Shown: piece after piece, positions 9,918 through 45,017 of the stretch
Layout of the letters: every line of letters starts with the position of its first letter
Position numbering within the stretch: position 1 is the first letter of the stretch
NCBI GenBank assembly: GCA_043803945.1
Contig: JAZDJN010000027.1
Coordinates: 7,931 to 71,930 of the forward strand
Length of the DNA stretch: 64,000 nt
Source: a bacterium
GTDB taxonomy: Bacteria > Bacteroidota > Ignavibacteria > UBA10030
Direction: 5' to 3'
Translations under genes and position numbers: made by a program
The notes under the pieces: model-generated
What the model was told of the DNA's origin: nothing
The model's database searches: none
Seen by the model: only the letters and a program-made list of their open reading frames with translations

Positions 9918-10007
9918 CGAGTCTATGGTGTAAACGTATCCGTTACAGTGATGACAATTATAAGAGTCTAAAGGGTGACAACATGTTATTCCAAAATGAA
10001 AAATTTA

Positions 10008-10580: not shown

Positions 10581-11056
10581 AGGCTTACATCAATCTATTG
10601 GCCTATCGTGAGAATCGCTACCATCGCTGCGAAAACTATTCGCTCCAATAGAGCGGCGATGGATTGTCCAATACTACGGCATTGCTATTCCTAAGATACA
10701 TCAGGAAATCCTGAAATACTAAAGGGAGGGATTGAATCAACAGTTCAGTAAGATTCCAAGGCGTTTCCCTACTAGGTTCACAGAGGCGGAGAGTCTTTTA
10801 AGGATTTTAAATATCTTCCAGAAGTAATCTCCTATTCCGTTGCTAGTACAAATTATGTTTTATACTAGCGGATTTAACAAGGGGAAAATCGAACTTGACA
10901 TTATCTTTGATTTCAAGTAACCTTGTATGGAGCTAGCTTAAGATTTTTCTGATAGACTATGAGATGTAATACTATCTCAATTCTACTAAATTTCATATGT
11001 ATTACCCTTTCAATACTGTTTCATTTATAGGTCAAGAATTTTGATCAGAGAAACGT

Positions 11057-11914
11057 TTGATGAAACAGGTAATCATTCTATGTTCATTCCTAATTAATGC
11101 CGCTCTTCTTTCAATTGCTGCCTTTGCTCAAGAAAAATCATCAATCCAACTAGATTCGCTTTTTAAGTCTAGAGTACAACTAGAAGAACAGGAGCTTTTT
11201 GATTTTCTTACAAATTTTAAATTTATATACATCGATAAACAAAATGAATTTAACAGAGCTCGTCAATTGAAAAGGATTGATAGTATCACATCAATTCTTC
11301 GTGCTTCTTGGAGGACAAGAAGCAAGATAAAACTCCTTAAATCATCTATAAGTACAAATCCAAATTCGAATACGATGTTTCATATTGGTAAGTATGACTT
11401 CAAGCGAGAGGCATTTGAGATTAAGCTAGGTAAGGTACCTTTTGCAGATAAATTAGACGTTGAAGAAGAGATTCTCAATAAATATTTAAGGAATAAAATA
11501 CCGAGGAGCACAAATATTTTAGGCGCATATATACTGCTATTCCTTGACAACTTCCAAATGGATAAAAAATATTTTCTTCCAATGAATACTTCTAGTGCTG
11601 AAGAATTTAAGCGACGGATTGAAGAGTATGAAACACCATGTGAAGTCGTTATTGATTTTTTAAGCTTTATCAAAGAAAGCATTAGTCTTGAATCTACAAT
11701 TGGTTTCGATAATTACAAGAATTCTCAAAAAGCTAACTTTCAGGGGATGTCCAAAAACGAAAGAGAAAGAATTCTGTTACAGCGATACCGATCACTATAT
11801 CCATATAATCTATCGCACGAAGCATCTTTTTTTCTTGAAGTTACTTTCAGGATCGTAGCAATTAGATTTTTTGATGTTTTCACCGATAAATATATTGATT
11901 GGGTTCCGAGATGA
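11057..11914 (+). CDS. Hypothetical secreted protein encoded in the low-GC island
   Basis: 285-aa ORF with a signal peptide (LLSIAAFAQE). Composition is AT-rich and I recognise no family. Confidence 0.45.
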   Translation: MMKQVIILCSFLINAALLSIAAFAQEKSSIQLDSLFKSRVQLEEQELFDFLTNFKFIYIDKQNEFNRARQLKRIDSITSILRASWRTRSKIKLLKSSISTNPNSNTMFHIGKYDFKREAFEIKLGKVPFADKLDVEEEILNKYLRNKIPRSTNILGAYILLFLDNFQMDKKYFLPMNTSSAEEFKRRIEEYETPCEVVIDFLSFIKESISLESTIGFDNYKNSQKANFQGMSKNERERILLQRYRSLYPYNLSHEASFFLEVTFRIVAIRFFDVFTDKYIDWVPR

Positions 11915-12031
11915 ACATCAGTAAATAGTATTTCTTTTTCTTCTAACAAGCTTTAATAAATGCATCTTACCAAAGAGTAATAATAAAGACGTTTCAACAT
12001 TAGGATATATTTCCTACTTATTATAGAAAAT

Positions 12032-13480
12032 TTGTCCCAGACAATTGAATATGTAAAGGCGGGCAATATGAACGCATCTAAAGTAATTTATATGAGTACT
12101 CTAATATTATCCTTCCCGTTTATCTTAGTGGGACAACCTTCATTAGATTGGATAAATAGAACTTCCACAAAAGAAAGCAATATCTTTAACTCTAGAATAT
12201 TTTTCTTTCCAGACTATTTGTTCCATCCGCTTTCTAGATATCAATATTATATTTTTCCAGACGACGAATTCGAAGAACATAAATTGAAAGAAAATCAAAA
12301 GTCTTTTCAATTACTCTTCGCATCTCGATGGAAAAATGGTTTCTTACTACAAATACCAATCGATGTGGGGAATAAATTAACAAATAGTAGTTACTTTCAA
12401 ATGGGGGTATATGATTTTAGATCGGAGTCTTTTCCATTGAGATTTGTTGGTGGCAATTTGGATTTTCCACTTTATAGGGAAGATGTTGATCAAACGCACC
12501 TGCAGAATGTATCTCAAGCAAAAGGCACAAAATATGCGTATCCGGGCCGAGGTGCAATACGATTGAGATCGAGTAAACCTTCAACAACTTTTTTTTCTTT
12601 GAAGGTTCCGAAACATTTTGCTGAAATATTCAAAAGTGGTGTAATTTCAGAAGGAATTGGAATTCAACTAATAATTGATTTTGAAAATTCGATTTCATAT
12701 TCATCAGCTCAAAAACCTACAAATCATTTTAAAGAGCAGATAGGAATTTGGAAGTTTAATAAAATTAATGAACAAGCTCTTAATACATATTTGAAGGAAT
12801 TTGGAAAAGTATTTGGAAGGCCAATGGAATTGATTCAATGCTTAAATTTGACAATAAAAATTAGAGGTTTTAGAATTGTTGATTATGAACAGATTATCCT
12901 TTTCGAGTGGATAGACAATTTAGCAACTCCTGGTTTATGGAAGATTGATTCAAAGAATTCAACATTCAGTGATCAGCTCATTATCGCTGAGCAACCGTTA
13001 GATACATTTATATCACAATGGGCGGAGTATCCATGGCATAGAGAAACTATCATCTCAAGTTACTCTATAGATAAGAATCAGGTTTCTAAACAAGAATGGC
13101 AATCATTTTTATCTCGGGATCTATATAATACAAGGAATGGATTTTTGACTTCTACTTCAATGAGCTATCTATCAGATGAATTTTCTTGGTGGGATTGTGA
13201 TTTCTATTTAAAAAGAATTGGTAAAAGATTACCGTCGAATTATGAAATTCGGCAGGCCGTCTCAGATAAACTTAAAAGCACTAATTCCAATAATAAGGCC
13301 TTCATTACTTTGATTAATTATCATAATGAGATTTGTAATAATTCGATAGATTTCAATAACAGGGAACACCTCTTTATTTCACGTAATGAAACCGGTCGAT
13401 GGTCAAAGACCGAATTTGACATAGATGATGATTACTGGCATTGGTCGAACTCGATCGGTTTTCGCGGTGTACATCACTGA
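12032..13480 (+). CDS. Hypothetical secreted protein with a degenerate FGE-sulfatase (SUMF1/DUF323)-like C-terminal region
   Basis: 482 aa with an N-terminal hydrophobic segment. The C-terminal part carries 'EYPW', 'VSKQEWQSFL', 'WWDCDFYLKRIGKRLPSNYEIRQAV' (compare the FGE 'W..A.AYC.W.G.RLPTEAEWEYAA' motif) and a terminal 'IGFRGV' (compare 'GFRCV'). Confidence 0.45.
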   Translation: MSQTIEYVKAGNMNASKVIYMSTLILSFPFILVGQPSLDWINRTSTKESNIFNSRIFFFPDYLFHPLSRYQYYIFPDDEFEEHKLKENQKSFQLLFASRWKNGFLLQIPIDVGNKLTNSSYFQMGVYDFRSESFPLRFVGGNLDFPLYREDVDQTHLQNVSQAKGTKYAYPGRGAIRLRSSKPSTTFFSLKVPKHFAEIFKSGVISEGIGIQLIIDFENSISYSSAQKPTNHFKEQIGIWKFNKINEQALNTYLKEFGKVFGRPMELIQCLNLTIKIRGFRIVDYEQIILFEWIDNLATPGLWKIDSKNSTFSDQLIIAEQPLDTFISQWAEYPWHRETIISSYSIDKNQVSKQEWQSFLSRDLYNTRNGFLTSTSMSYLSDEFSWWDCDFYLKRIGKRLPSNYEIRQAVSDKLKSTNSNNKAFITLINYHNEICNNSIDFNNREHLFISRNETGRWSKTEFDIDDDYWHWSNSIGFRGVHH

Positions 13481-13644
13481 TAATTTCTCTACGCTTATGA
13501 TTAATTTGATAAATAATAAAAATACATCAAACCCTATAAATAATTGTGAAAAACCTTATTGAACCTAGGTATTGGATTATCATTGTAGATTCTGAAATTG
13601 TAATATCAAACATCACTAACTAATCTTTCTACTGGCACCATACT

Positions 13645-14298
13645 ATGCCACTATCTGAGTTGAGCTGGAAGTTAATCCTTCTTTTTACTCCTGGGATTAT
13701 ATGCACTTTAACGATTGACATGTTGACAATTCATGCTCGTTGGTCACCATTCGATTTTCTAATCAGGTCTTTCATTTATGGTATCATTACTTATTTATTT
13801 TTACAGTTGCTACTCTTTACATATTTTGGAATTTATAGCGTTTACCATCATGAACAAATAACCATCGCTTACTTATCTATTTGGCGATTAATTACGGAGC
13901 AAGGACAGACCGTTAATATCATTGAGATTACGGGGTCATCTATATTATCAATCATCGTAGGATTTATTGCTAGCAAGGTGATGAATGACAAAGTATTAAT
14001 TAAGATTGGAAGGAAGCTAAAGATTACCTCTAAATTTGGAGACGATGATGTATGGTCATATTTCCTGAGTGATGACGAAGTACACTGGGTTTGGGTCCGA
14101 TGTCCAAAAGACAATATTGTTTACGAGGGTTGGGTTCAGGCGTTTTCTGAATCAGAAAAATATCGAGAAATCGTTTTACGAGATGTCAAAGTCTATGCAA
14201 ACAACAATTCTTCCTTCTTGTATGAGATTCCCGCTGCTTATCTATCAGGGGAACCGAATGATTTATTCATAGAGATTCCACCAGATCCATTTTTATGA
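13645..14298 (+). CDS. Hypothetical integral membrane protein (~4 TM plus soluble C-terminal domain) encoded in the low-GC island
   Basis: 217-aa ORF with four hydrophobic helices in the first 110 aa followed by a charged C-terminal domain. Confidence 0.4.
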   Translation: MPLSELSWKLILLFTPGIICTLTIDMLTIHARWSPFDFLIRSFIYGIITYLFLQLLLFTYFGIYSVYHHEQITIAYLSIWRLITEQGQTVNIIEITGSSILSIIVGFIASKVMNDKVLIKIGRKLKITSKFGDDDVWSYFLSDDEVHWVWVRCPKDNIVYEGWVQAFSESEKYREIVLRDVKVYANNNSSFLYEIPAAYLSGEPNDLFIEIPPDPFL

Positions 14299-14621
14299 GA
14301 AAACATGTATTCATAAATCCCCATAATCCGATCGAAATATATATAGGAGATTATCATGCGAAAAATACTTGCTGAGGGAACCGACAAGAAATCGATAAAG
14401 CCAAAACCACAAAAGCCACGTCCCAGCACACCTCCTCCACCACAACCAAGGCCTCATGGTGGAAGATAATAATACAAGCACAATAACTTTAGTTGTAGAT
14501 ATTGACTTATAGCTATTTGAATTGGAAGAATATTCTTAACTAGTATCCAAATATCAGTAGGATCAATTGTATGAGTATGTACGCTAACAATTCTAATATC
14601 TTATTTTATGAAAGGTACATT

Positions 14622-17486
14622 ATGAGACGATATCTTTTTGCCTTCTTATCCTTGTTATTCTCCTTCAGCACACTCGCAGTTGCTGGTGAAAAGGGGAAAG
14701 AGTTTAAAATTCCGTATGAGAAATATAAGCTTGCCAATGGCTTGAATGTCATTCTCCATATGGACAAATCCGATCCCATCGCCTCGATCTACGTCTGTTA
14801 CCATGTCGGCTCGAATCGTGAGACGAAGGGGCATACGGGATTTGCTCACCTGTTCGAACACATTATGTTTCAGGAGTCGCAGCACATTCCACAGGATCAG
14901 TTCTTTAAAAAGATTCAGGGTGCTGGCGGGACGTTAAATGGCTCGACAAATAATGACCGGACAAATTACTATGAGACGGTTCCGAAAAATGCATTGGAGA
15001 TGGCGCTCTGGATGGAAGCCGACCGGATGGGATTTCTGCTGAGCAAACTCACGCAGGAAGCATTCGAGAATCAGCAGAACGTTGTGCAGAATGAGAAACG
15101 GCAAAACTACGACAACCGTCCACTCGGCAACTCAGGGTATGTGTTGAGCAAATTGCTCTACCCTGATATCCATCCCTACAACTGGCAGGTCATCGGCTCG
15201 TTGGATGATCTTGGTAATGCCAGCCTGCAGGATGTTATCGACTTCTATCGAAAATATTATGGCCCGCAGAATGCAACACTGGTTGTTGCCGGCGATCTCG
15301 ATGTGCCGCAAACAAAAAAATGGATTGAAAAATATTTCGGAGAAATCAAGGGAGGAGCAAAAGCTCAATCGCTTTCCAAGATGCCTGTGACATTGACGGA
15401 AACAAAGAAAGCATACTATGAGGATGATCTCACAAACTCCAATTCCTTTACAATGGCATTCCCGACGGTTGAAGAATACAACAAGGACTCCTATGCACTG
15501 AGGTATCTCGGTCAGTTGCTCGCGAGCGGAAAGAAATCTCCGATGTATCGTGTGCTTGTAGACGAGAAAAAACTGACTCCAAGCATGGGCGGAGGAGGCG
15601 GAGGCCGCGGTATGGGCGGCGGCGGTGGTGGAGCAATGAACAGGAGCATGGAACTGAGCGGATCATTCAACATCTCGGTGCAGCCTTATCCCGATAAAAA
15701 TCTTACCGATGTGGAATCCGCTGTGAAGGAAGCTTTTGAATTGTTCGAGAAAGAACGCTTCACCGATAAAGATTTGGAACGGCTCAAAACCGGTATTGAA
15801 TTACAGTTCTATAACAGTATCGCCGGTGTTGCCGGAAAAGCTTCACGCCTGGGCGATCTGAATGAATATGCTGGTTCTCCCGACTTCCTGAATTCCGACC
15901 TCAACAATTCCCTCAATGTGACGAAGGAAGATATCTGGAGAGTATACAACCAGTATATCAAGGGGAAAAATTATGTCGTGCTCAGTATCGTACCGACAGG
16001 GAAATCAAATCTTGTTGTACAAGGTTCAACACTGTTCGTTATACCTGAGGAGTCGATATCCAGGCAGGGCACCGCGAAGAAGAGTGCAACTTCTGTAAAA
16101 GTTGAGCCAACCCCGACAAAATTTGATCGATCGAAGGAACCGCCGAAAGGCTCTAACCCGGCTGTGACGATTCCAAAAATATGGACAGCGAACACAAAGA
16201 ACGGAATCAAGATTTATGGTATTACCCATAAAGAACTTCCGCTTGTTCAATTCTCTGTCTCGCTGAAAGGCGGAATGATGCTCGATCCAAAAGATAAGAT
16301 CGGCACATCTTCTTTGACCGCACGGCTGATGAATGAGGGGACCAAGACTAAAACTCCGGTGGAATTGCGTGAAACCATGCAGGACCTTGGTGTCAGTGTC
16401 TCGATGAGCAGCGGCGAAGAAACGTTTACGGTCTCCAGTAGCTGCCTCGCAAACAAACTCGCTGATGCCGTTGCTCTTGCAAAGGAAATGATGTTTGAGC
16501 CGCGATGGGATGAGAAGGAGTTCGCCCTGGCAAAACGCCAAACTATGGAATCCTTTAAACGGAGTGAAAGCAGCCCTGCCAGTATTGCCACAAGAGTGTT
16601 CGACAAGCTTGTCTATGGTGCCGATCATATTCTGGCGAGTTCTGCAAGCGGGACGGCAAAATCGATCGAGAGCATTACCATCGACGATCTGAAGAATTAC
16701 TACAACAACTATTTCTCACCCTCCGTCGCTAAGATTATGGTGGTAGGGGACATTACCAAAGAAAAAGCAGTTGCTATGTTTGATGCATTGAAAGATTGGC
16801 AAGCAAAGGAAGTTAAGATTCCAAAGATTTCCGTCGAACCATCCAAAATGAAACCCGGCATCTACTTTGTCGATGTTCCGAATGCAAAGCAATCGGAATT
16901 CAGAGTCGGTCATTTGGGACTTGCCAGAACAAATTCTGATTACTACAAAGCGGTCGTCATGAATTACCACCTTGGCGGTAACTTCAATGGAATTCTGAAC
17001 ATGATCCTGCGAGAGGAGAAGGGATACACATACGGTGCCCGTTCCAGTTTCTCCGGAACAACAAATCCCGGTACTTTCCAGGCATCATCGAGCATTCAGG
17101 GAAATGCAACCTTGGAAACCTCAAAAATCATCCATTCGGAGATCGATAAATATCGTCAGGGAATATCCCCCGAGAATCTTGCCCTCGTTAAAAGCACAAT
17201 CCTGAATGGCGAGGCATTGAATTATGAGACTATTCGCCAGTTGGCTGGCATGCTTTCCCTGATTGTTCAGTACGATCTGCCGTTCGATTATGTCAAAAAG
17301 CAGCAAGAGATTGTCAAGAATATGAGCACGTCAGAGCATAAGGCACTCTCGGAAAAATATCTGCTGCCGGATAAGATGATCTATCTCATCGTGGGTGATA
17401 AAGCAACTCAGTTTGACAAGTTGAAGGAAGTCGGCCTTGGAACTCCTATCCTGTTGGATAAAGAAGGAAAACCGGTCGCACAATAA
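14622..17486 (+). CDS. M16-family (pitrilysin/insulinase-like) zinc peptidase, two-domain, secreted
   Basis: The inverted zinc motif HxxEH is 'GFAHLFEHIMF', with the downstream E in 'NVVQNEKRQ'. There is a signal peptide and a length of ~955 aa, typical of two-repeat M16 enzymes. The probable start is the ATG at 14622 (MRRYLFAFLSLL); the ORF is open from 14571. Confidence 0.8.
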   Translation: MRRYLFAFLSLLFSFSTLAVAGEKGKEFKIPYEKYKLANGLNVILHMDKSDPIASIYVCYHVGSNRETKGHTGFAHLFEHIMFQESQHIPQDQFFKKIQGAGGTLNGSTNNDRTNYYETVPKNALEMALWMEADRMGFLLSKLTQEAFENQQNVVQNEKRQNYDNRPLGNSGYVLSKLLYPDIHPYNWQVIGSLDDLGNASLQDVIDFYRKYYGPQNATLVVAGDLDVPQTKKWIEKYFGEIKGGAKAQSLSKMPVTLTETKKAYYEDDLTNSNSFTMAFPTVEEYNKDSYALRYLGQLLASGKKSPMYRVLVDEKKLTPSMGGGGGGRGMGGGGGGAMNRSMELSGSFNISVQPYPDKNLTDVESAVKEAFELFEKERFTDKDLERLKTGIELQFYNSIAGVAGKASRLGDLNEYAGSPDFLNSDLNNSLNVTKEDIWRVYNQYIKGKNYVVLSIVPTGKSNLVVQGSTLFVIPEESISRQGTAKKSATSVKVEPTPTKFDRSKEPPKGSNPAVTIPKIWTANTKNGIKIYGITHKELPLVQFSVSLKGGMMLDPKDKIGTSSLTARLMNEGTKTKTPVELRETMQDLGVSVSMSSGEETFTVSSSCLANKLADAVALAKEMMFEPRWDEKEFALAKRQTMESFKRSESSPASIATRVFDKLVYGADHILASSASGTAKSIESITIDDLKNYYNNYFSPSVAKIMVVGDITKEKAVAMFDALKDWQAKEVKIPKISVEPSKMKPGIYFVDVPNAKQSEFRVGHLGLARTNSDYYKAVVMNYHLGGNFNGILNMILREEKGYTYGARSSFSGTTNPGTFQASSSIQGNATLETSKIIHSEIDKYRQGISPENLALVKSTILNGEALNYETIRQLAGMLSLIVQYDLPFDYVKKQQEIVKNMSTSEHKALSEKYLLPDKMIYLIVGDKATQFDKLKEVGLGTPILLDKEGKPVAQ

Positions 17487-20085: not shown

Positions 20086-21507
20086 TTGTGTGAACGCACT
20101 CCAATCGAAACTGAGAGTCAATGGGAAAGAAATATTTTCCTGCATCAATCCGAAGTGATATCATCCATTTACTTTCTTATATTCTGCACATTATTACTTG
20201 TCATGGATAAACCTCTGATCGTCATCGTTTATAATGGAACAATGGATCGACTGACAAAGGCAATACCTCCCAAATTGATTGCCGCCGGAGCAGTGCTGCT
20301 GCTCGCGTTGCCCGTGGTTGTGTATACACGGCTTGTATTTCTTTATATGGTCAACATTCCATTCCATGATGATTATGAAATCATTCTGGATTTCATGAAT
20401 AAGTATCTCCAGGCCGACACCCTTGGAGAAAAACTCTCATTGCTTTTTTCCCAGCATAACGAACATCGCATGGTGTTTGGGCGAATTGTGGCACTGGTTC
20501 AATATTCCTTGCGTCAGGAGATAAGCCTGAATGACTCTCTGCTGATCGGCAATCTCGGATGGATTTGTGCGATAGCGATTATTATGATCGTTGCACAAAA
20601 GCACTATCGTTTAACTCTGGTCCAACTGTTACCCATTCCCTTCATTCTCCTGATACCGACACACTGGGAAACGATGGTCTTTGCTTCTGCTGCAGCAAAT
20701 TACTGGGTGATCGTTTTTTCACTTGTTTTTATCCTTTGCGTTGTGCACGATCGATTCGTTGGGGCGTGTCTCTTCTACCTCGCGGCGCTTCTGACATTCG
20801 GCAATGGACTGTTGTTGGGCTTGTTGGGACTCTGGTTCTGGGGGCGCCAGAAACGATGGAAACCGTTCTTTGTGTTTGGTGCGCTGATGGTTGTATCTAC
20901 GCTTCTTTATTATGTGAATTACCAGAAGCCGGTCGATCATCCAATGGTTTTCGAAACGATTACACAACCAGGCGCAGTACTATCGTACATCGTTCTGTTT
21001 TGGGGCAGCATTCTCCCAATGAAAATCCCTGCCTTTCTGTTCGGCCTGGGAATGATCATCTACGCGATACTCCATATGCTGAAGAGAAATCGGGATCACT
21101 TCCTGATTATGATTATTCTTTTTGTTGCTCTGACGAGCCTTGCTGCTGCGATCACAAGAAGCGGATTTGGAATCGAGCAGGCGCTCTCATCGAGAAATTC
21201 AATCTACGCACTCCTCCTTGTCGCGTGCTGCTACATTTCTATGATCACCTCAATCAGTCAAACTCAAATCAGGAATGGCGTTGCTCTCGTGATGATTTTT
21301 CTTGCCATACTATTTTGGCACACCAATGCAGCACGGTATGAAACAAAACTGTCGTTAAGAAAGTCTGATCGAATTGCAGGTTTTGCTAAACTCATCGAGA
21401 GGAAAGATCCTGCAAGTCTAATTCATCCGGATCAAATGCGAGCCGCAGCAATTCTCTTTACTGCCGAGAGTTTACATGTTTATCAGTATAAGCACTGGAA
21501 TCGATGA
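20086..21507 (+). CDS. Polytopic integral membrane protein (>=10 TM), possibly a GT-C-like glycosyltransferase or polymerase, first gene of the exopolysaccharide-like cluster
   Basis: Continuous strongly hydrophobic ORF with a soluble C-terminal ~90 aa. The probable start is the ATG at 20203 (MDKPLIV). I recognise no family with confidence. Confidence 0.45.
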   Translation: MCERTPIETESQWERNIFLHQSEVISSIYFLIFCTLLLVMDKPLIVIVYNGTMDRLTKAIPPKLIAAGAVLLLALPVVVYTRLVFLYMVNIPFHDDYEIILDFMNKYLQADTLGEKLSLLFSQHNEHRMVFGRIVALVQYSLRQEISLNDSLLIGNLGWICAIAIIMIVAQKHYRLTLVQLLPIPFILLIPTHWETMVFASAAANYWVIVFSLVFILCVVHDRFVGACLFYLAALLTFGNGLLLGLLGLWFWGRQKRWKPFFVFGALMVVSTLLYYVNYQKPVDHPMVFETITQPGAVLSYIVLFWGSILPMKIPAFLFGLGMIIYAILHMLKRNRDHFLIMIILFVALTSLAAAITRSGFGIEQALSSRNSIYALLLVACCYISMITSISQTQIRNGVALVMIFLAILFWHTNAARYETKLSLRKSDRIAGFAKLIERKDPASLIHPDQMRAAAILFTAESLHVYQYKHWNR

Positions 21508-21532
21508 ATACCTCACCGCATGGGACTGTCGT

Positions 21533-22699
21533 ATGAAAAAAATTGCAGTCATATTCGGAACCAGGCCCGATACCATCAAATTGGCACCGGTGATTCTTGA
21601 GTTGCAGAAAAGCAGCAAGCAGTTCAAGGTGCTCACTATTGCCACCGCCCAGCATCGACAGATGCTGGATCAGGTTCTTTCGGTGTTTCATATTACTCCC
21701 GATTATGATTTGAATATCATGCAGGCAAAACAATCGCTTGCGAGCATCGTGCACAATACCATCAAAGCACTCGATGCGATTCTGGAGCAGGAACGACCTG
21801 ATCTCGTCCTGGTTCAGGGCGATACCACAACGACATTTGTCGGAAGCCTGGCAGCTTTTTACAGAAAGATTCCTGTCGGTCATGTCGAGGCAGGTTTACG
21901 GACGTATGATAAATTCAATCCATTTCCCGAGGAAATTAATCGCCGGCTCACAGGCACACTGACTGATCTGCATTTTGCGCCGACACAAACTTCAAAACGC
22001 GCTCTCCTCAAAGAGAACATCCATCCGAAATCCATCTTTGTCACAGGGAATACCGTTATTGATGCATTGAAGATGACGGTGACCCGTAGGCATACATTTT
22101 CATTGCCGGTATTGACTACGATTCTTGCTCAAAAGAAACGAATCATTTTGGTGACGCTCCACAGGCGGGAAAATTGGGGCGAACCGATGAAGAGCGCATG
22201 CCGGGCAATCCGAGCAATTTCTGAGCAGCATCAGGACATCAATATTATTTTCCCTGTCCACTTAAACCCGATAGTTCAGGAAGTTGTCCATGCAACATTA
22301 GGTAATCTTGATAATGTTTACCTGGTCGCTCCGTTGGAATACCCTGATTTTGTCAATGTGATTGCCAGGTCGTTTCTTATCATCACGGATTCTGGTGGAG
22401 TTCAGGAGGAAGGCCCGCATTTTGGAATACCGATTCTGGTGATAAGAAAAGTTACAGAACGGCCAGAGGCAGTTGAGTATGGGACTGTGAAACTCGTCGG
22501 TACCGGGGAGAAAAAGCTTTTATCCGCCGCAGAGCGTCTTATCACCAACACGCATGAGTATCGTAAGATGGCTTCTGCCATCAATCCTTATGGCGACGGC
22601 CTCTCTTCAAAACGAATTGTTCAGATCATAAAATACTCGCTTGGCATATCACGGACGAAAATCAAAGAATTTGTCCCTGGTAAGAAGAGAAAGCAATGA
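21533..22699 (+). CDS. wecB: UDP-N-acetylglucosamine 2-epimerase (non-hydrolysing)
   Basis: The N-terminus 'MKKIAVIFGTRPDTIKLAPVI', 'TAQHRQMLDQVL...DYDLNIM', 'HVEAGLRT', 'TGNTVIDAL' and 'ITDSGGVQEE' give a canonical WecB/MnaA motif series. Confidence 0.85.
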   Translation: MKKIAVIFGTRPDTIKLAPVILELQKSSKQFKVLTIATAQHRQMLDQVLSVFHITPDYDLNIMQAKQSLASIVHNTIKALDAILEQERPDLVLVQGDTTTTFVGSLAAFYRKIPVGHVEAGLRTYDKFNPFPEEINRRLTGTLTDLHFAPTQTSKRALLKENIHPKSIFVTGNTVIDALKMTVTRRHTFSLPVLTTILAQKKRIILVTLHRRENWGEPMKSACRAIRAISEQHQDINIIFPVHLNPIVQEVVHATLGNLDNVYLVAPLEYPDFVNVIARSFLIITDSGGVQEEGPHFGIPILVIRKVTERPEAVEYGTVKLVGTGEKKLLSAAERLITNTHEYRKMASAINPYGDGLSSKRIVQIIKYSLGISRTKIKEFVPGKKRKQ

Positions 22700-22730: not shown

Positions 22731-25700
22731 TTGATAAACCATTGCACGGAGATGTTTCACGGAAAAGCAGCAGTGATATCAACCGCATGCCGTTGTCTTG
22801 TTCTCATAGTTATTCTTCTATGGTGCTCAGCAACCACATCATATTCGCTTCCTCAATCCAAGACGAAAAATATAATCATTCTGGTAGAAGGGGATACCAA
22901 TCTTAAGAGCATTCCGATGGCCGGCGGGCGGCAGTTAGCAACTCTCTTTGGCCATTTCGATGTGAAAAGTACAATCAAAGGTGTTAATCAATATACCGCA
23001 GGAGAGATGAACGGTTATGATCTTGTATACTACCTCGGTGACAAATTCAAGAATACTCCACCAACGAACTTTCTGAACGATATTCTCACCACGCGCAAAG
23101 ATATTGTCTGGTTGAATACCGGCTTCGCTGAGTTCTCCAAGACCCATGATGTTCAGAAGACATTTGGATTTTCTGTCAGCGCCATTGATTCTTCCTCCGG
23201 CTATGAGATTGTCAAGTCCGGGACCAAGGTATTCACCAAAGGTGATAAACCGACTGCGGTGATCCAGATTGCCGATAGGGAATTAGTTAAGGTATTGGCG
23301 ACCACATATTCTCCCTCTCGAAAGAAAGAAATTCCCTACATCGTCAAGTCGAAGAACCTCACATATATTGGCGACTCTCCCTTCTCCTATGCCAGCGAGA
23401 CCGACCGCTATCTCCTCTTCGCTGATATGCTGCATGATATCCTCGGTGAGCAGCATGAGGAATCCCATTCGGCGATTATCCGTATCGAAGATATCAGTCC
23501 CATGGATGATCCAGAGAGACTCCGTGATATTGCCGATCTGTTTGCCTCCCACAATGTCCCGTTCCTCGTCGGCGTGATTCCGTTCTATGTCAATCCTTCC
23601 ACCGGAACCCGGCTCGGATTATCTGATAAACCGGAGCTGGTGGATGCGCTCAAATATGTGGTGCACAACGGCGGTGCGCTGGTAATGCATGGCAGCACGC
23701 ATCAATATAAAGGAGTGACAGCTTCGGATTTCGAATTCTGGAATCAGATGACGAATAAACCAATCGCCGATGAATCGGAATCAACCTTCTCGAAAAAGAT
23801 TGAGTCGGGCATTCAGGAATTCATGAAAAACGGCCTCTACCCGATCGTATGGGAGACCCCCCACTATACCGGATCCTTTCTATTGTACAAGACCATTGCG
23901 AAATACTTCAGCAGTGCAATGGAGCCGCGATTGGCGATTGAAGATATTGACCAAAGCCAGTTCTTCCCTTACATCATTGCGAAAGATCTCTTTGGTCAAA
24001 AGCTCTATCCTGAGAATCTTGGCTATGTTCCGTTCGATGAGGATCCACGAATCGGCGAGGAAGCAGTTCAAACGATTTTAAGAGGTGCCAAAGCAAACCT
24101 TGCTGTGCGTGACGGGTTTGCTGCTTGTTTTTTTCATTCCTTCAATGAACTCGATTTACTTGAAGAGCTCGTGGATGGTATTCTTGCGCTTGGTTATAAA
24201 TTTTATGATTTGCGTGATCAGAATAATTGGGTAAAGACATCCGACAGAATAATTCTGACCGGAAGCCAGGACTATACACTGAAACTCAACGGGCAGTATC
24301 TCTCCGAAGCGTACTACGATGTTGACGGGCAAATAAAACAGGAGCTGTATTCAGAGAACAGAATTGATGGCACAATCACCAAATCGATCTCACTGGCACC
24401 GGGTGAACTCTACCGCGCAGAACCGGTGGAGTACCGTGAACGGAAGCTGACGATGACTGAGAAACTTGCCAACAGCCTCGATCGTGCGTACCAGCATATC
24501 TTCACTTCAACCGATGTGTGGAAGGAAGCCCGTGTTGCCATTCTCTGGAATCATTATGCGCGCGGCTCGGCGTACAATGATCAGGCTTCTTTCGCTTCCA
24601 CATTTCAGAGCATCAACATTAAGGTCGATACTATTTTCCTTGGACAGCAGATCAATCTTCAACCGTATAACCTGGTTGTCGTACCGTATGTTTTCATCGA
24701 CTCCCTTTCGGAGAGTGATTACACAACTCTTGCGGATTACGTGAAACGTGGTGGGAATATGATCACCGACACGAAAAGCTCTCTGACTGATCATTTCGGC
24801 ATCAAGTTTAGTGAGACAAAAATCAGAATTCGCAGGATCCGCGACCGATTTTTCCCGGAAGAGGCAATCGCCTGGCGTTATGCCGAACTGGTCAATAAAA
24901 TTGAGATCGATGATCCCGACGAGATCTTGTGCTCTGATGAGGTTACCCAAATGCCGATGGTGATTGGGAAGCACGTTGGGAAAGGGAAAATCATCTTTTT
25001 CAATTCCCGATTCGATCCTTACTCTCAACAGGGCTATAGTCTCTACCCGTATCTTCTCGAGTATGTGAGAAAGTTCTTTAATCTCTCGCCGATTGTTCGG
25101 AGAGATAACCTCGAAGTATATTTCGATACTGGATTCCGGATAAATTTCAGTACAGAAAATCTGATCAAGCAATGGGTGACACAGGGGATTCGGATTATCC
25201 ATGCCGCCGGCTGGCATCAATACCCCCACTTTACATTTGATTATCGGCGCCTGATCGACCTGGCCCATGCCAATGGAATGCTGGTGTATGCCTGGCTTGA
25301 ACCGCCGCAGGTGAGTCAGAAGTTCTGGCTTGAACATCCGGAGTGGCGTGAGAAAAATTATAAAAATCTCGATGTCCAACCTTCATGGCGGTACCCTGTT
25401 GCGATGACAGATCCAAAATGCCTTGAAGCCCTTGCACAAGAGTTCAACACTCTTCTGGAGCAGTACGACTGGGATGGTGTGAATTTGGCAGAACTCTATT
25501 TTGAGGCTGGAAAAGGGCTGCAGGAGCCGAACCTTTTTACACCCATGCATCCCTCGGCAAAAAGTGAAATCTTTAGAAAATATGGAATCGATATGAATAC
25601 GGTGTTCGATTCAACATCGGCATCGTATTGGAAGCATCACCCTTCCGTCGAGAATTCCATTACCACATACCGGGTCAATAAGCTCCGTGAGGTCTATGAA

Positions 25701-26726
25701 CTTCTTTTGTCGATGTTCGAAAGGATTGCCCAACAGAAGGCTGGCTTCGAGATTATGGTCACAGCCATGGAAAGTCTCGGGTCTCCGGAATTGCGGGAAT
25801 ACATTGGCGTGGATATGAAGAGTATTCTAGAACTCCAGAAAAAATTTCAATTTACTTTACAGATAGAAGATCCAGAGCTTCGCTGGTCATCTAATCCGCA
25901 GCGCTATATTGAAATTGGGAATCGGTACAGGGGGCTTCTTGGCGGAGATTCCAAACTGGCACTGGACCTCAATATTCTCACCTTCAGGAAGGGAAATGTT
26001 GTCACACCGTTTCCCACATTGATTCAAACCGGTACGGAATGTTTTCAGTTGATTCGGGCTGCTGCTTTGGGTGCCCCACGATTCACGATCTATTCCGAGT
26101 CCAGTGTGAATCCTCAGGACATGACGTTCCTCCCATTTGCTGCCTCGCCGCACGTACAATATCGGTATATCCAAAATGGGTTTGAATTTTATTCCCCCTA
26201 TTCTTTTACCTTACAGCTTCCACCGGCAATCACCATCATTACCGTCGATGGAGCATTACTCGTACCACATCGCGAAAATCTGTTTACCATTCCGGCGGGA
26301 ACACATTCGGTTCGTCTGTCACGTGAGTCCATTGGTTCGTTTTCCGCAAGCGACCTCCAGGCAAAAATTCTTTCCTGCAGCGGGAATCTTACTTCTGTGC
26401 TGTACGGGATGCACGATATGAAGTTTACCTATGAATCAACGACCCGGACATTGATTTCGGTGAATCGCAAACCAACAGCCATCAAAGTCGACCAGCAGGA
26501 GTATCACCCCACCGTAATGAAGGGGAATGATTGCTTCACAATTTTCCTGCCGCCAGGGAACCATGAGGTTGAGTTAAGAGCGGGCGATGCTATTTCGTAC
26601 GGCATCAATCTGACATCCATCTGGTCGTCGACCGGCATTGCGATCTTTGGCACTCTCGCGGTAGCGATGCTTTTCGTTATGTACCTTCTTTTAAAAACCC
26701 TTCGAAAAAAGTATTCATCCGTCTGA
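22731..26726 (+). CDS. Giant (1331-aa) membrane-anchored multidomain protein with a deacetylase-like (DUF2334-like) region and a GH-like TIM-barrel (GHL10-like) region
   Basis: It has an N-terminal signal/anchor and a C-terminal TM helix ('IAIFGTLAVAMLFVMYLLL'). The region 'IRIEDISPMDDPERLRDIADLFASHNVPFLVGVIPFY...LVMHGSTHQY' resembles predicted polysaccharide deacetylases. The region 'IHAAGWHQYPHF...MLVYAWLEP...DWDGVNLAELYFE' resembles glycosyl-hydrolase-like TIM barrels. Confidence 0.55.
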   Translation: MINHCTEMFHGKAAVISTACRCLVLIVILLWCSATTSYSLPQSKTKNIIILVEGDTNLKSIPMAGGRQLATLFGHFDVKSTIKGVNQYTAGEMNGYDLVYYLGDKFKNTPPTNFLNDILTTRKDIVWLNTGFAEFSKTHDVQKTFGFSVSAIDSSSGYEIVKSGTKVFTKGDKPTAVIQIADRELVKVLATTYSPSRKKEIPYIVKSKNLTYIGDSPFSYASETDRYLLFADMLHDILGEQHEESHSAIIRIEDISPMDDPERLRDIADLFASHNVPFLVGVIPFYVNPSTGTRLGLSDKPELVDALKYVVHNGGALVMHGSTHQYKGVTASDFEFWNQMTNKPIADESESTFSKKIESGIQEFMKNGLYPIVWETPHYTGSFLLYKTIAKYFSSAMEPRLAIEDIDQSQFFPYIIAKDLFGQKLYPENLGYVPFDEDPRIGEEAVQTILRGAKANLAVRDGFAACFFHSFNELDLLEELVDGILALGYKFYDLRDQNNWVKTSDRIILTGSQDYTLKLNGQYLSEAYYDVDGQIKQELYSENRIDGTITKSISLAPGELYRAEPVEYRERKLTMTEKLANSLDRAYQHIFTSTDVWKEARVAILWNHYARGSAYNDQASFASTFQSINIKVDTIFLGQQINLQPYNLVVVPYVFIDSLSESDYTTLADYVKRGGNMITDTKSSLTDHFGIKFSETKIRIRRIRDRFFPEEAIAWRYAELVNKIEIDDPDEILCSDEVTQMPMVIGKHVGKGKIIFFNSRFDPYSQQGYSLYPYLLEYVRKFFNLSPIVRRDNLEVYFDTGFRINFSTENLIKQWVTQGIRIIHAAGWHQYPHFTFDYRRLIDLAHANGMLVYAWLEPPQVSQKFWLEHPEWREKNYKNLDVQPSWRYPVAMTDPKCLEALAQEFNTLLEQYDWDGVNLAELYFEAGKGLQEPNLFTPMHPSAKSEIFRKYGIDMNTVFDSTSASYWKHHPSVENSITTYRVNKLREVYELLLSMFERIAQQKAGFEIMVTAMESLGSPELREYIGVDMKSILELQKKFQFTLQIEDPELRWSSNPQRYIEIGNRYRGLLGGDSKLALDLNILTFRKGNVVTPFPTLIQTGTECFQLIRAAALGAPRFTIYSESSVNPQDMTFLPFAASPHVQYRYIQNGFEFYSPYSFTLQLPPAITIITVDGALLVPHRENLFTIPAGTHSVRLSRESIGSFSASDLQAKILSCSGNLTSVLYGMHDMKFTYESTTRTLISVNRKPTAIKVDQQEYHPTVMKGNDCFTIFLPPGNHEVELRAGDAISYGINLTSIWSSTGIAIFGTLAVAMLFVMYLLLKTLRKKYSSV

Positions 26727-26745: not shown

Positions 26746-28005
26746 ATGTCTGTTTTAGAAATCGATCTCAGTTTTCTCTTCCTCATCGCAGTCATCCTGA
26801 TCTGGTTTATGATCGGCTATCAGTTCGTACTGACGCTCTTTGGGTATATCAATTTTATCCGATCCTTAAGGGAGAAGAACGAGATCGATCAGATGTCGTT
26901 TCAATTCCCTCTTTGTACGATCCTCATTCCGGCACATAATGAAGAAAAGGTCATTGCCAAAACGATCGAGTCGATGTTGAAGCTGAAGTATCCGAAGGAA
27001 CAACTCCAGATTGTCGTTATTAACGACGGCTCGACAGATGCAACGAAGGAGATTAGTGCGAGATGTGCCAGAGAAGACTCACGGGTGGAATTGTACGATA
27101 TTCCCCTCGGTGAAGGCGGTAAAGGAAAATCGAGAACATTGAATCTGGGGCTCAGTGCTGCCCGCGGTGACATTATTGCCATCTACGATGCTGACAACAC
27201 GCCACATGAAGATTCACTCCGCTATCTCGTGTCGCAATTGCTTCTGCATAAGGAGCTTGGCGCTGTGCTCGGGAAATTCCGGACGGTGAATAAAAACAGG
27301 AATTGGCTGACGAAGTTCATTAATATCGAAACCTTAAGTTTTCAGTCCATGCTTCAGGCAGGGAGATGGCAAATGCATAACATTGCCACGCTTCCCGGAA
27401 CGAACTACGTGGTGTGGAGCTGGCTGATCAGAAAATTAGAAGGTTGGGATGAAGAGGCGCTGACGGAAGATTCTGAGCTGAGTATCCGGATGTACGAAGA
27501 GGGATATAAAATTAAATTCATCCCGTATGCTATTACCTATGAACAGGAACCCGAAGAGTGGAAGGTGTGGATTAAGCAGAGGGTTCGATGGGTACGCGGC
27601 AATAATTATGTGCTCTTAAAATTCCTCAAACATATTCCAAAGTTCAAGAATCGACGGCTGGCGTTCGACATCCTCTACACCCTTGCTCTGTACTATATCT
27701 TTTTTGCAGCTATTGTAGTCTCCGACCTTCTGTTCCTGATTGGATTGTTCAACCTAGTCAGTATCTCTCTTCCCGGTCCGTACACGTTTGTCTGGCTTAT
27801 TGCTTTTATCCTCTTCATCCTGGAAATCATTCTAGCAATCTCATTTGACGAAGAGGATAGTTTCAAGCAAATCTGGTTTATTGTGCTCATGTATTTCTCG
27901 TACTGCCAGTTGTGGATTTATATCGTGGTGAAGGCTGTCTATGCGGAGTGGATTAAAAAAGAAAAACGGACTTGGACAAAAACGATCCGGTTTGATACAG
28001 AATGA
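26746..28005 (+). CDS. Processive family-2 glycosyltransferase (PgaC/IcaA/NodC/cellulose-synthase-like polysaccharide synthase)
   Basis: N-terminal TM, then 'ILIPAHNEEKVIAKTIESMLKLKYP...IVVINDGSTD', 'IYDADNT' (DXD) and 'QRVRWVRG' (Q-x-x-R-W), followed by 3-4 C-terminal TM helices. Confidence 0.8.
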   Translation: MSVLEIDLSFLFLIAVILIWFMIGYQFVLTLFGYINFIRSLREKNEIDQMSFQFPLCTILIPAHNEEKVIAKTIESMLKLKYPKEQLQIVVINDGSTDATKEISARCAREDSRVELYDIPLGEGGKGKSRTLNLGLSAARGDIIAIYDADNTPHEDSLRYLVSQLLLHKELGAVLGKFRTVNKNRNWLTKFINIETLSFQSMLQAGRWQMHNIATLPGTNYVVWSWLIRKLEGWDEEALTEDSELSIRMYEEGYKIKFIPYAITYEQEPEEWKVWIKQRVRWVRGNNYVLLKFLKHIPKFKNRRLAFDILYTLALYYIFFAAIVVSDLLFLIGLFNLVSISLPGPYTFVWLIAFILFILEIILAISFDEEDSFKQIWFIVLMYFSYCQLWIYIVVKAVYAEWIKKEKRTWTKTIRFDTE

Positions 28006-28060: not shown

Positions 28061-29497
28061 ATGAAGAGATCTCCTCAACGAATACCATTCATCCTGTTTT
28101 GTCTTCTCGTGTGTGTTCTTTCCCTGCACTCTCAGAAAGTTCGGAACGATAGTCAAACGAAGAGCAACAACGCAGCAAGTACACTGAGAAGTCAGTATGA
28201 AACCCGGCTCTCTCAGATATTCCTCACCAACGTCACCCGTCAGAAGCACTACGTCGATTCGCTTTCACGAGAGATTATCAAGCTTCGTGATATACTGCAG
28301 AGAGGTGTCAGTAAAGTCCATGACACGCTCATTGTTGCTGCAGCTCGTCTGTTCAATGCTTTGAGGAGAGATTCATTGCAGCGAACCTCTTTCCTGTTGA
28401 CACAACCTTTTCAATCGTTGACAGATCGCTGGAACACTCTCTCAGGTAATTTACTCAATCGTGAAACAACGTTTCTTAAGGCACAGCAATCCTTATTCGG
28501 TCGATCGTCGATTTCAGATCAGGATGAATCTGTTGAAAGGATAGAGGAGTATTCATCGATTGCGGATAGTGTTTCTGAGATGGTTCTTGATTCGAGTTCC
28601 TGCTTTTTCGATACAATCATAGACAATCTCACCGAAGCTGCCGATGCTGCACGCGACTCGTTGGAGTCCGTCTATTGGCTTCTGGAGGAGGATCAACAGA
28701 AGGAGAATGATCTTCTTGCAGAGCGCCAGGAAGCGATTGCAGACAGTCTTGCCGAGGTGAAGGAACATGCTTCGAGACTTGTTGTTTCGATGTACTATAA
28801 TCACCATGCAACGTATCGCGGCCGCGATAATGGGATTAGCTATAATTCATTTGTTCCAACCCTCACGTATACTCATCGATCGGGATTTTCTCTTGGGCTG
28901 ATGGGAATCATTTTCCCCAATCACCCTGAGCGTCGTTATGAAGGTACCGGAGTAAGTCTGGGTTACTCGGGAGAAATTGCTGCTGTGGTGAGTTCCAGCA
29001 TTACCTATACGCATTTTTGGTTTGGCAAGAACAGTGCGGAACCGCGCTCCTATATGAACGATAACCTCTGGGCTGATTTGGATATAAACCTCGGCAGCTT
29101 TTCCATGAATCTTGCATCAACGTATGATATAGGATCAAAATCCGAATTCAATGGTATCCTTACTTCGATGGTTCTTCTTGATCTTGGTAAACCATTCGGA
29201 GCAGACAGGTTCGTCGGCGGCCCGGTGCTTTCGGCGCTCTACGGGCAACAGGATGCAACCTTAACGAGTGTTCGATTAACCATCTTGAAAAAGAGAACGA
29301 TCTCCACAACCGTCACCGAAGAGAAAAAAGTGTTTGGAGTTCTCTGCTATGAGCCGATGTTGATCCTCAGTTATCAGAAGGGGGGATTCAATCTGAAACC
29401 GTCGCTGGTATATGAAATTCCATTAAATGTTGTCGATAATAGCACCTCTCATCCCTTTCTCAATGTGACCTTGGAGATGAGTTATACCATCCGTTAA
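28061..29497 (+). CDS. Secreted protein with a helical N-terminal half and a beta-strand-rich C-terminal half; putative outer-membrane export barrel of the polysaccharide system
   Basis: Signal peptide (FCLLVCVLSLHSQ). Residues ~30-230 are Leu/Glu/Arg/Gln-rich helical sequence. Residues ~240-478 show an alternating hydrophobic pattern ('FSLGLMGIIF', 'GVSLGYSGEIAAVVSS', 'LTSMVLLDLG', 'KPSLVYEIPL', ...). Confidence 0.4.
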   Translation: MKRSPQRIPFILFCLLVCVLSLHSQKVRNDSQTKSNNAASTLRSQYETRLSQIFLTNVTRQKHYVDSLSREIIKLRDILQRGVSKVHDTLIVAAARLFNALRRDSLQRTSFLLTQPFQSLTDRWNTLSGNLLNRETTFLKAQQSLFGRSSISDQDESVERIEEYSSIADSVSEMVLDSSSCFFDTIIDNLTEAADAARDSLESVYWLLEEDQQKENDLLAERQEAIADSLAEVKEHASRLVVSMYYNHHATYRGRDNGISYNSFVPTLTYTHRSGFSLGLMGIIFPNHPERRYEGTGVSLGYSGEIAAVVSSSITYTHFWFGKNSAEPRSYMNDNLWADLDINLGSFSMNLASTYDIGSKSEFNGILTSMVLLDLGKPFGADRFVGGPVLSALYGQQDATLTSVRLTILKKRTISTTVTEEKKVFGVLCYEPMLILSYQKGGFNLKPSLVYEIPLNVVDNSTSHPFLNVTLEMSYTIR

Positions 29498-29636
29498 AGA
29501 TGATCTGCGGGTAAAATCGATCGTGCGCTTTCAGGTTTATGCACTGAACAATAGAAGATCGGCACTGAAAAAATTGTTGAGCACGATTAATCTTCGTGCT
29601 TGTTGAAAAACTATTCTTTATCGAAAGAGGCTCACT

Positions 29637-44565: not shown

Positions 44566-44639
44566 TACGCCCGAAGGGAGTCGAACCCCTAACCCTCAGC
44601 TCCGTAGGCTGATGCTCTATCCAGTTGAGCTACGGGCGC
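44566..44639 (-). tRNA. tRNA-Arg (anticodon ACG)
   Basis: The reverse complement folds as a cloverleaf: acceptor GCGCCCG/CGGGCGT, D-arm GCTC..GAGC, anticodon stem TCAGC/GCTGA with loop CTACGGA, and T-arm AGGGG-TTCGACT-CCCTT. There is no encoded CCA. Confidence 0.8.
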
Positions 44640-44755
44640 AAAGGAATATGTAAATGTGGAAATGAGTAAATGAAGGAATTGTAGCATTGAAAAGACGTTT
44701 CTCTTAATTCCTCAATTTCCTAATTCCCAAATTTTCACATTCTCACATTTCTATG

Positions 44756-44828
44756 TAGCCCTAACGGGATTCGAACCCGTATTTTGGCCTTGAGAGGGCC
44801 ACGTCCTAAACCCTTAGACGATAGGGCC
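44756..44828 (-). tRNA. tRNA-Glu (anticodon CTC)
   Basis: Reverse complement 'GGCCCTATCGTCTAAGGGTTTAGGACGTGGCCCTCTCAAGGCCAAAATACGGGTTCGAATCCCGTTAGGGCTA'. The anticodon loop is CTCTCAA and the T-loop is TTCGAAT. Confidence 0.75.
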
Positions 44829-44944
44829 AAGGTAAATAAGTGAATGTGAAAATGTGGAATTGAAAAACAGTTTCTTTCAATTTCTCAATGCCATATTCTA
44901 CATTCTCATATTCCCCCATTCTCATATTTCCATTGCTGCCCCGC

Positions 44945-45017
44945 TAGGGCTCGAACCTAGACTCTTCTGATCCAGAGTCAGACGTGTTGCCAGTTACACC
45001 ACGGGGCAATTAAAAAT
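44945..45017 (-). tRNA. tRNA-Gln (anticodon CTG)
   Basis: Reverse complement 'TGCCCCGTGGTGTAACTGGCAACACGTCTGACTCTGGATCAGAAGAGTCTAGGTTCGAGCCCTAGCGGGGCAG'. The U1-A72 pair is typical of tRNA-Gln, the anticodon loop is CTCTGGA and the T-arm is CTAGG-TTCGAGC-CCTAG. Confidence 0.8.

Follow-up and report, generated by a model that had tools for sequence, protein, structure and literature searches.

What is understood of synthase-dependent exopolysaccharide systems (cellulose, poly-N-acetylglucosamine or PNAG, Pel, alginate) comes almost wholly from Proteobacteria, in which the outer-membrane step is taken by a 16-18-stranded barrel guided by tetratricopeptide repeats (TPR). How a polymer would take this step elsewhere is the question raised by a 64,000-nucleotide stretch of DNA from an Ignavibacteria genome (assembly GCA_043803945.1, contig JAZDJN010000027.1, positions 7,931 to 71,930 of the forward strand), hereafter called the window. 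A gene for a processive glycosyltransferase family 2 (GT2) synthase ends there at 28005, and 55 bp past its stop begins the gene for a protein of 478 amino acids (aa), hereafter called the target. An earlier note made from the sequence had placed the gene right after GT2, as is the case, and had proposed that its product is an outer-membrane export component. We analyzed the target by structure prediction, family searches and comparison of genomic context. On balance, we judge it fairly likely that the target is the outer-membrane component of a synthase-dependent exopolysaccharide system that operates without TPR repeats and exports its polymer through the modeled barrel. The structural assignment, made on a predicted model, is solid, while we infer the function from context only.

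Predicted architecture of the target

The features of the target, in window coordinates, are as follows.

28061..29497, + strand: target gene, a 478-aa open reading frame (ORF) with ATG start, encoding a predicted signal peptide, three-helix bundle and 12-stranded outer-membrane beta-barrel
28061..28132, + strand: predicted signal peptide, aa 1-24, with cleavage between ...LHS and QK
28172..28768, + strand: N-terminal helical module as modeled, aa 38-236 (helices H1 38-97, H2 100-147, H3 154-236)
28775..29491, + strand: predicted 12-stranded beta-barrel, aa 239-477
28814..28834, + strand: family signature Y-R-G-R-D-N-G, aa 252-258, in the first long loop
29420..29443, + strand: conserved P-x-N-V-x-D-x-S, aa 454-461, in the last long loop

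The ORF and each of the features that the earlier note described were borne out, with homologues to E 3.8e-70. We modeled the target with AlphaFold2 (AF2) from a 136-sequence family alignment, which gave a mean predicted local distance difference test (pLDDT) of 93.3 and a predicted template modeling score (pTM) of 0.71. The C-terminal ~240 aa are predicted with high confidence to form a closed outer-membrane barrel of 12 strands, not 16. The strands are at 239-247, 263-271, 276-284, 293-305, 310-321 and 334-344 (strands 1-6) and at 347-357, 361-371, 383-398, 423-440, 443-454 and 466-477 (strands 7-12). The alternating hydrophobic dyads that had been noticed in this half were found to coincide with the modeled strands, one face of which carries L/Y/V/F/I and the opposite face S/N/T/E/D; in the lumen the net charge amounts to about -6. 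The odd-numbered connections between strands are long (15, 8, 12, 3, 24 and 11 residues), and the even-numbered connections are mostly short (4, 4, 2, 11 and 2 residues). The odd-numbered connections are presumably extracellular and the even-numbered ones periplasmic turns, and because of this alternation of long loops and short turns the start of strand 1 is placed, presumably, at the periplasmic rim.

The helical character that the earlier note gave to the N-terminal part also held in the model, where the helices lie within aa 38-236, and is refined to a three-helix bundle. The modeled bundle is elongated and, at 1.5 Å per residue, would reach ~70-90 Å. H3 projects ~36 residues (201-236) beyond the H1/H2 hairpin; this overhang, which connects the bundle with strand 1, is acidic (net -8) and would add ~50 Å on the same reckoning. 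The net charge of H3 is -19 overall, compared with +5 for H1 and +3 for H2. Both domains have pLDDT > 95, yet pTM is 0.71. This suggests that the geometry between the domains is loosely fixed.

The best fold matches of the modeled barrel were 12-stranded outer-membrane channels (COG4313, KdgM, FapF, NanC) and autotransporter beta-domains, and with such neighbors the model speaks for a barrel rather than a soluble periplasmic protein. The fold-match figures were 16.8 for the COG4313 channel, 16.6 for the BrkA beta-domain, 16.3 for KdgM, 16.2 for FapF, 16.0 for Hbp, 15.0 for NalP, 14.4 for NanC, 10.9 for PgaA and 10.1 for PelB. KdgM, NanC and COG4313 share the 12-stranded fold, but they serve in uptake, have no N-terminal domain and show no detectable sequence relationship to the target. 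FapF is nearest in overall architecture, since it too combines a 12-stranded barrel with an N-terminal helical extension (in the target, a predicted one) and belongs to a dedicated secretion operon. However, identity to FapF is 8-9% in structural alignments, with no PDB sequence match, and FapF trimerises by a parallel coiled coil and exports a polypeptide, whereas the target has an intrachain three-helix bundle in the model and a presumed polysaccharide cargo.

The sequence itself was consistent with this architecture. The N-terminal half is rich in S, L, R, D, E, A and Q and amphipathic with an alpha-helical period, and the C-terminal half is enriched in G, Y, T, S and F. The predicted signal peptide comprises MKRSPQR, a hydrophobic core and HS before the Q at the cleavage site; it coincides with the sole hydrophobic 19-residue window of the protein (aa 4-28) and is modeled as a helix (8-20) followed by disorder (24-32). 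In the alignment, the relatives of the target have A/S-Q at the equivalent cleavage position, and Gln at +1 is typical for Bacteroidota signal peptides. A lipoprotein identity was considered and discarded from the sequence and general knowledge, LLVC not being a canonical lipobox.

The earlier note had taken the C-terminus ...LEMSYTIR, which has no canonical terminal aromatic residue, as a reason for caution. This end is indeed present and recurs in the family: among the 132 members whose alignment extends to the last strand, the final residue is R or K in 52, mostly after a hydrophobic residue, and F, W or Y in 40. Because R/K endings recur in this way, the ...TIR ending is no argument against a barrel, and it reads as a family variant.

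Neither Pfam nor NCBIfam, searched with the whole target and with each half (E <= 10), gave a usable match, nor did PDB when searched with the target sequence and the family profile. Sub-threshold matches to Rv2743c and SMC3 were dismissed as helical-composition noise. The lack of TPR repeats, which had been remarked on before, was confirmed: no TPR family matched the N-terminal half even at E <= 10, and the model contains three long helices in this part and no TPR solenoid.

Barrel genes in related synthase operons

The target gene is preceded by the following genes.

20086..21507, + strand: polytopic membrane protein with ~10-12 transmembrane (TM) segments by TM scan, overlapping the start of WecB
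21476..22699, + strand: WecB, UDP-GlcNAc 2-epimerase for precursor supply (TIGR00236, 497 bits against a cut-off of 210)
22731..26726, + strand: DUF2334 protein of 1331 aa (PF10096 at 1.7e-48 plus GH42M)
26746..28005, + strand: processive GT2 synthase, PgaC/BcsA-like, 419 aa (Pfam GT2 families)

The best NCBIfam model of the GT2 protein was TIGR03937 PgaC_IcaA, at 151 bits, which is under the model cut-off. The protein aligns to BcsA over aa 6-384 and has the motifs DAD148, TED240 and QRVRW278 and 1+3 TM segments. DUF2334 belongs to the deacetylase/glycoside-hydrolase superfamily, and the DUF2334 protein is presumed to be a periplasmic polymer-modifying enzyme. It has one hydrophobic segment at each end (14-32 and 1303-1321), the first of which may be a cleaved signal peptide. 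The polytopic membrane protein had no Pfam or NCBIfam match and no homologue in the 68 related GT2 loci described below; it is possibly an accessory of the operon specific to this genome, for example a modifying or GT-C-like enzyme.

We then compared the operon with those of related synthases. Hundreds of GT2 orthologue clusters above 70% identity are in the database, and among the matches listed all 120 clusters share 71% identity or more with the GT2 of the window. A metagenome scan with this GT2 yielded 68 loci, in nearly all of which a DUF2334 protein of ~1310-1330 aa is encoded directly upstream and in which WecB usually precedes the DUF2334 gene. This WecB-DUF2334-GT2 core is kept in ~60 metagenomic loci, with GT2 66-81% identical, and the occupant of the position after GT2 varies between loci.

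In a substantial subset of these operons an outer-membrane barrel is encoded directly after GT2. Among the related loci, at least 14 have a barrel gene that runs in the same direction as GT2 and adjoins or overlaps it (L022, L027/L029, L034-L037, L049, L089-L092, L094 and L095, and counting L058, where it is the second gene downstream). The frequent occupant is a family of ~415-445 aa, here denoted OMP430, whose gene often overlaps the GT2 stop. OMP430 was found in L022, L027/L029, L034, L035, L036, L037, L049 and L058 (hmmsearch E 1e-85 to 1e-181; for example, L027:9247-10560) and also follows GT2 in L091, L092, L094 and L095. L091 and L092 contain the GT2 orthologues nearest to that of the window (79-81% identity). 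The order DUF2334-GT2-OMP430, with overlapping stops and starts, also occurs on CP065001.1, a 4.6-Mb NCBI record, and on a 3.0-Mb ENA contig. OMP430 carries a signal peptide and a canonical ...G-I-G-F end and has no Pfam and no PDB sequence match; it was modeled as a 16-stranded barrel (pLDDT 81) with PelB, BcsC and PgaA among its fold matches. Distant homology between the OMP430 and target barrels was considered and rejected (hhalign probability 4%).

The N-terminal domain of the target connects these two barrels. Two proteins encoded after GT2 were found to be fusions of a target-like helical N-domain with an OMP430 barrel.

L090:10001-11869: P0061, 622 aa, in the order DUF2334 (62% identical to that of the window), GT2 (78% identical), P0061
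L089:763-2670: P0056, 635 aa, nine bp after a GT2 gene (79% identical)

In an exhaustive HMMER search with the target, both matched in the N-domain alone, P0056 over target aa 8-257 (E 1e-13) and P0061 over aa 54-237 (E 1e-11), and the two rank second and third among the matches to the target N-domain. The OMP430 profile covers residues 245-635 in P0056 and residues 247-622 in P0061. The N-domain alignment has 31% identity over 194 aa and includes the overhang helix, in which target DSLESVYWLLEEDQQKENDL is aligned with P0061 DSIESVYYRLEENAQKEKDL. From these alignments, the helical module of the target is homologous to that on the OMP430 barrels of L089 and L090. Since the same module occurs on the 16-stranded OMP430 barrel of P0061 and P0056, it appears to be portable between unrelated barrels.

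Two further loci contain relatives of the target that consist of the barrel only. In L064 the relative (304 aa, E 1.9e-42) follows GT2 at a distance of 25 bp, and in L071 the relative (286 aa, E 9e-44) precedes WecB by 4 bp. No OMP430 gene was seen in L064, L071 or the 64-kb window. The shared N-domain, the barrel-only relatives in the operon and the absence of a second barrel from view together indicate that the barrel of the operon was replaced by a non-orthologous one and that the helical module is common to two unrelated barrels.

The portability of the N-domain can also be read as a sign that the function lies in the helical module and not in the type of barrel. The target would then be an outer-membrane anchor or scaffold, whose plugged barrel tethers the bundle, and the bundle would organise the DUF2334 enzyme or link the system to the outer membrane. 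As for the plug, the conserved loop motifs are charged and could occupy the small lumen. We consider this reading very unlikely. Most operons carry a barrel without the helical module (OMP430 in L091, L092, L094 and L095; the short forms in L064 and L071), for which reason the barrel appears to be the conserved requirement, and the strand faces toward the lumen are polar.

Two other proteins were observed beside GT2 or OMP430 in the related loci. A protein of ~700 aa follows OMP430 at L027:10575-12671, L091:7995-10091, L094:9249-11342 and L095:9428-11608 and may be a further component of the system; the one in L027 has BNR/YCF48-like sequence and a C-terminal sorting domain of the type IX secretion system (T9SS), and the protein is absent from the window. 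In nine loci (L045, L048, L050, L051, L053/L054, L056, L063 and L081), the gene that directly follows GT2, on one strand or the other, encodes a second, shorter DUF2334-like paralogue. It has ~30% identity to the large DUF2334 protein and is 725-762 aa long when complete and 597-679 aa when cut by a contig end.

The target's family and its genomic contexts

To define the family of the target, we scanned 1.84 billion cluster representatives exhaustively with HMMER, which yielded 143 relatives at E <= 1e-3, among them 63 at <= 1e-10 and 19 at <= 1e-30. A word-indexed homologue search had recovered the target itself and one fragment, nothing more. Two architectures were found in the family: ~50 clusters are full-length (420-490 aa), and the more numerous barrel-only members (63 clusters, ~260-340 aa) align solely to target aa ~225-478. 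R255, G275, P388 and P454 are nearly invariant across the family (alignment A1). Among full-length members, R255 and D256 of the first long loop are invariant, G395-x-Q397 is shared, and P454, N456 and D459 of the last long loop are invariant (alignment A2). A degenerate DNA pattern for the loop-1 motif, searched in one genome per GTDB species, matched 14 loci, every one in metagenome-assembled genomes of Ignavibacteriota/Bacteroidota.

TIGR02001 (TorF family putative porin) was weakly matched by 12 of 136 members (best E 3.9e-7) and PF09694 (Gcw_chp) by 11 of 136 (best E 4.8e-5). Going by these profile matches, the nearest named family is that of the TorF/Gcw_chp putative porins, which are remote and themselves uncharacterised. 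At ~240 aa, these small outer-membrane barrels are of about the size of the target's predicted barrel domain, and many relatives of the target are barrel-only as TorF is. The target itself matches neither model and, unlike TorF, has an extra helical N-domain of 200 aa.

Several observations weigh against export through the target. Homologues of the window's GT2, DUF2334, WecB and upstream membrane protein were found in none of the 20 loci anchored on family members, where the neighbors are instead rhamnosidase, amidohydrolase, methyltransferase, M61/M1 peptidases, aldose epimerase and T9SS cargo. Because none of these loci holds the operon and the neighbors vary, the family is no dedicated partner of the synthase; as a whole it is not dedicated to the synthase operon, and most members are elsewhere. 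On the side of the operons, an opposite-strand gene follows GT2 in 14 of 45, and in many no barrel gene is visible. The known exopolysaccharide porins have 16-18 strands. A pore of 12 strands is narrow, and in the model it could be occluded by the long loops that are conserved (the one with YRGRDNG and the one of 24 residues, which contains a helix). The synteny with GT2 that the earlier note had named as a check thus failed from the side of the family (0/20 loci) and held from the side of the operon, in the barrel gene at GT2 in at least 14 loci, in the fusions of L089 and L090 and in L064 and L071. Of its proposal of an outer-membrane export component, the barrel (AF2, high confidence) and the operon position stood and family-wide synteny did not. 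The support for an export role comes from context and not from synteny across the family, and export itself is what we infer from that context.

The same contexts could fit a general porin of the TorF/KdgM type for uptake of small solutes or oligosaccharides, which would be a chance neighbor of the operon while the polymer leaves by another route. The nearest named relatives are TorF/Gcw_chp, the structural neighbors KdgM, NanC and COG4313 are uptake channels, and the 0/20 family-anchored loci have catabolic surroundings (rhamnosidase, amidohydrolase, M1/M61 peptidases, aldose epimerase). This reading leaves unexplained, however, why family members are associated with the operon three separate times at different positions (the window, L064 and L071), why the target gene sits where related operons encode a dedicated barrel, and why its N-domain is common to fusions located directly after GT2. 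We regard uptake as an improbable role for the target.

A second alternative is an autotransporter-like (type Va-like) surface protein, in which the overhang of helix 3 would thread the barrel and the bundle would be displayed on the surface, for example to bind or retain exopolysaccharide. A signal peptide, an N-terminal domain, a long helix and a C-terminal 12-stranded barrel are indeed the type Va architecture, and an overhang of 36 residues is long enough to span the barrel. However, the Pfam Autotransporter model (PF03797) matched neither the target nor any of the 136 family members. Autotransporters scored no better than empty 12-stranded barrels, with similar alignment lengths and no sign of a matched lumen helix, and were absent among the 50 best Foldseek matches listed. 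Further points tell against this reading, and because of them we favor a periplasmic location for the modeled bundle: the module, overhang included, is also fused to a 16-stranded barrel, barrel-only members are common, the length of the overhang varies by 8-17 residues, and, as a weaker point, pTM is modest (0.71) with confident domains (> 95 pLDDT), which suggests loose inter-domain geometry. An autotransporter-like protein therefore seems unlikely to us.

Within the family, the closest homologue (P0003, 33% identity) follows a cluster of extracytoplasmic function (ECF) sigma factor, FecR, TonB-receptor and T9SS-cargo genes, and the homologue P0002 adjoins a divergent gene of glycosyltransferase family 1. 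A frame change splits the P0002 gene (L001:10001-11370) into ORFs of 303 and 150 aa, which points either to a pseudogene or to an error in the assembly. In L013, L014, L018, L019 and L010, the family member is part of a conserved gene block (rhamnosidase, amidohydrolase, family member, methyltransferase, M61 and M1 peptidase), which probably reflects common ancestry of the genomes. T9SS cargo genes adjoin target-family genes in 3 of ~17 family loci (L002:8100-9773, L007:4303-6453 and L020:1-1467), as judged from Por_Secre_tail Pfam matches in L002 and L007 and from BLAST clustering of L020 with these two. This adjacency may be due to chance, since such cargo is common in these phyla.

Proposed polymer route and other features of the window

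In their combination of an all-helical N-domain and a C-terminal barrel in one polypeptide, and in their operons with a processive GT2 and a polymer-modifying enzyme, PgaA, BcsC and PelB resemble the target as modeled. They differ in having TPR repeats and 16 strands, whereas the target has no TPR, 12 strands and no match to their sequence models. Because TPR, strand number, sequence models and PF03797 all fail, we place the target outside both the PgaA/BcsC/PelB and the autotransporter families. Judged only from its context, it would work like an exopolysaccharide porin without membership in the former.

We propose the following route for export. WecB would supply UDP-N-acetylmannosamine, and GT2 would polymerise an N-acetylhexosamine polymer (of N-acetylglucosamine and/or N-acetylmannosamine) and translocate it across the inner membrane. 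The membrane-anchored DUF2334 protein would modify the polymer in the periplasm. The chain would then exit the cell by way of the 12-stranded barrel, in a manner comparable to the passage of linear oligosaccharides through KdgM and NanC and of an unfolded polypeptide through FapF. The lumen of the target appears acidic, and the pore of PgaA is also electronegative; a polymer that is neutral, or cationic through partial de-N-acetylation, would fit such a lumen, as in PgaA. The helical bundle would hang in the periplasm and reach toward the inner-membrane machinery, guiding or gating the polymer and taking over the role that TPR domains have in PgaA, BcsC and PelB. The barrel would have been recruited from a general TorF-like porin family, displacing the usual 16-stranded barrel of the operon.

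In a broader version of this proposal, which we offer tentatively and at somewhat less than even odds, the three-helix bundle would serve as a portable adaptor in the periplasm. It would link either a 12-stranded TorF-like or a 16-stranded OMP430 barrel to the PgaC-like synthase and DUF2334 protein, allowing TPR-independent export through what would be the smallest polysaccharide export pore known.

The results indicate that a widespread system of Ignavibacteriota/Bacteroidota, with WecB, a giant DUF2334 protein and GT2, is built differently from the proteobacterial ones in two respects. Its outer-membrane barrels are undescribed and have no TPR repeats, and the type of barrel appears to be swapped between 16 and 12 strands with a helical N-terminal module in common. 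Such a swap with a shared module is unusual, and the target is probably an undescribed and unusual export pore for the polymer. If the 12-stranded barrel does conduct polymer, it would set a new lower size limit for polysaccharide pores and would offer a first way into the function of the TorF-like porin family, which is uncharacterised. The analysis also defines two unannotated protein families that are labelled 'hypothetical' in current databases. A literature search (DUF2334, Gcw_chp, TorF porin, Ignavibacteria with PgaC) found no description of the operon, OMP430 or the target family.

We also examined the end of the operon and the remainder of the window. One element was found in the 139-bp gap after the target gene.

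29579..29601, + strand: stem-loop with an 8-bp stem (-11.6 kcal/mol, z -2.49 against shuffles)

The stem-loop has no strong U-tract and is tentatively a possible weak terminator at the end of the operon. Promoter and terminator scans stayed at the level of shuffled sequence, and Rfam gave no riboswitch or other regulatory RNA near the operon; the sole Rfam matches in the window are three tandem tRNA genes (44566-45008, - strand). Elsewhere in the window, the stretch 10000-14000 has a low GC content (0.33-0.37, compared with ~0.46) and may be an acquired island. It contains three + strand ORFs of 285, 482 and 217 aa and of unpredicted function, which adjoin a minus-strand ECF sigma/FecR-like pair. 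An M16-like peptidase, assigned by eye from the HxxEH-type motif HLFEH, is encoded at 14571-17486 (+ strand) and carries the glycine-run insertion GGGGGGRGMGGGGGGAM.

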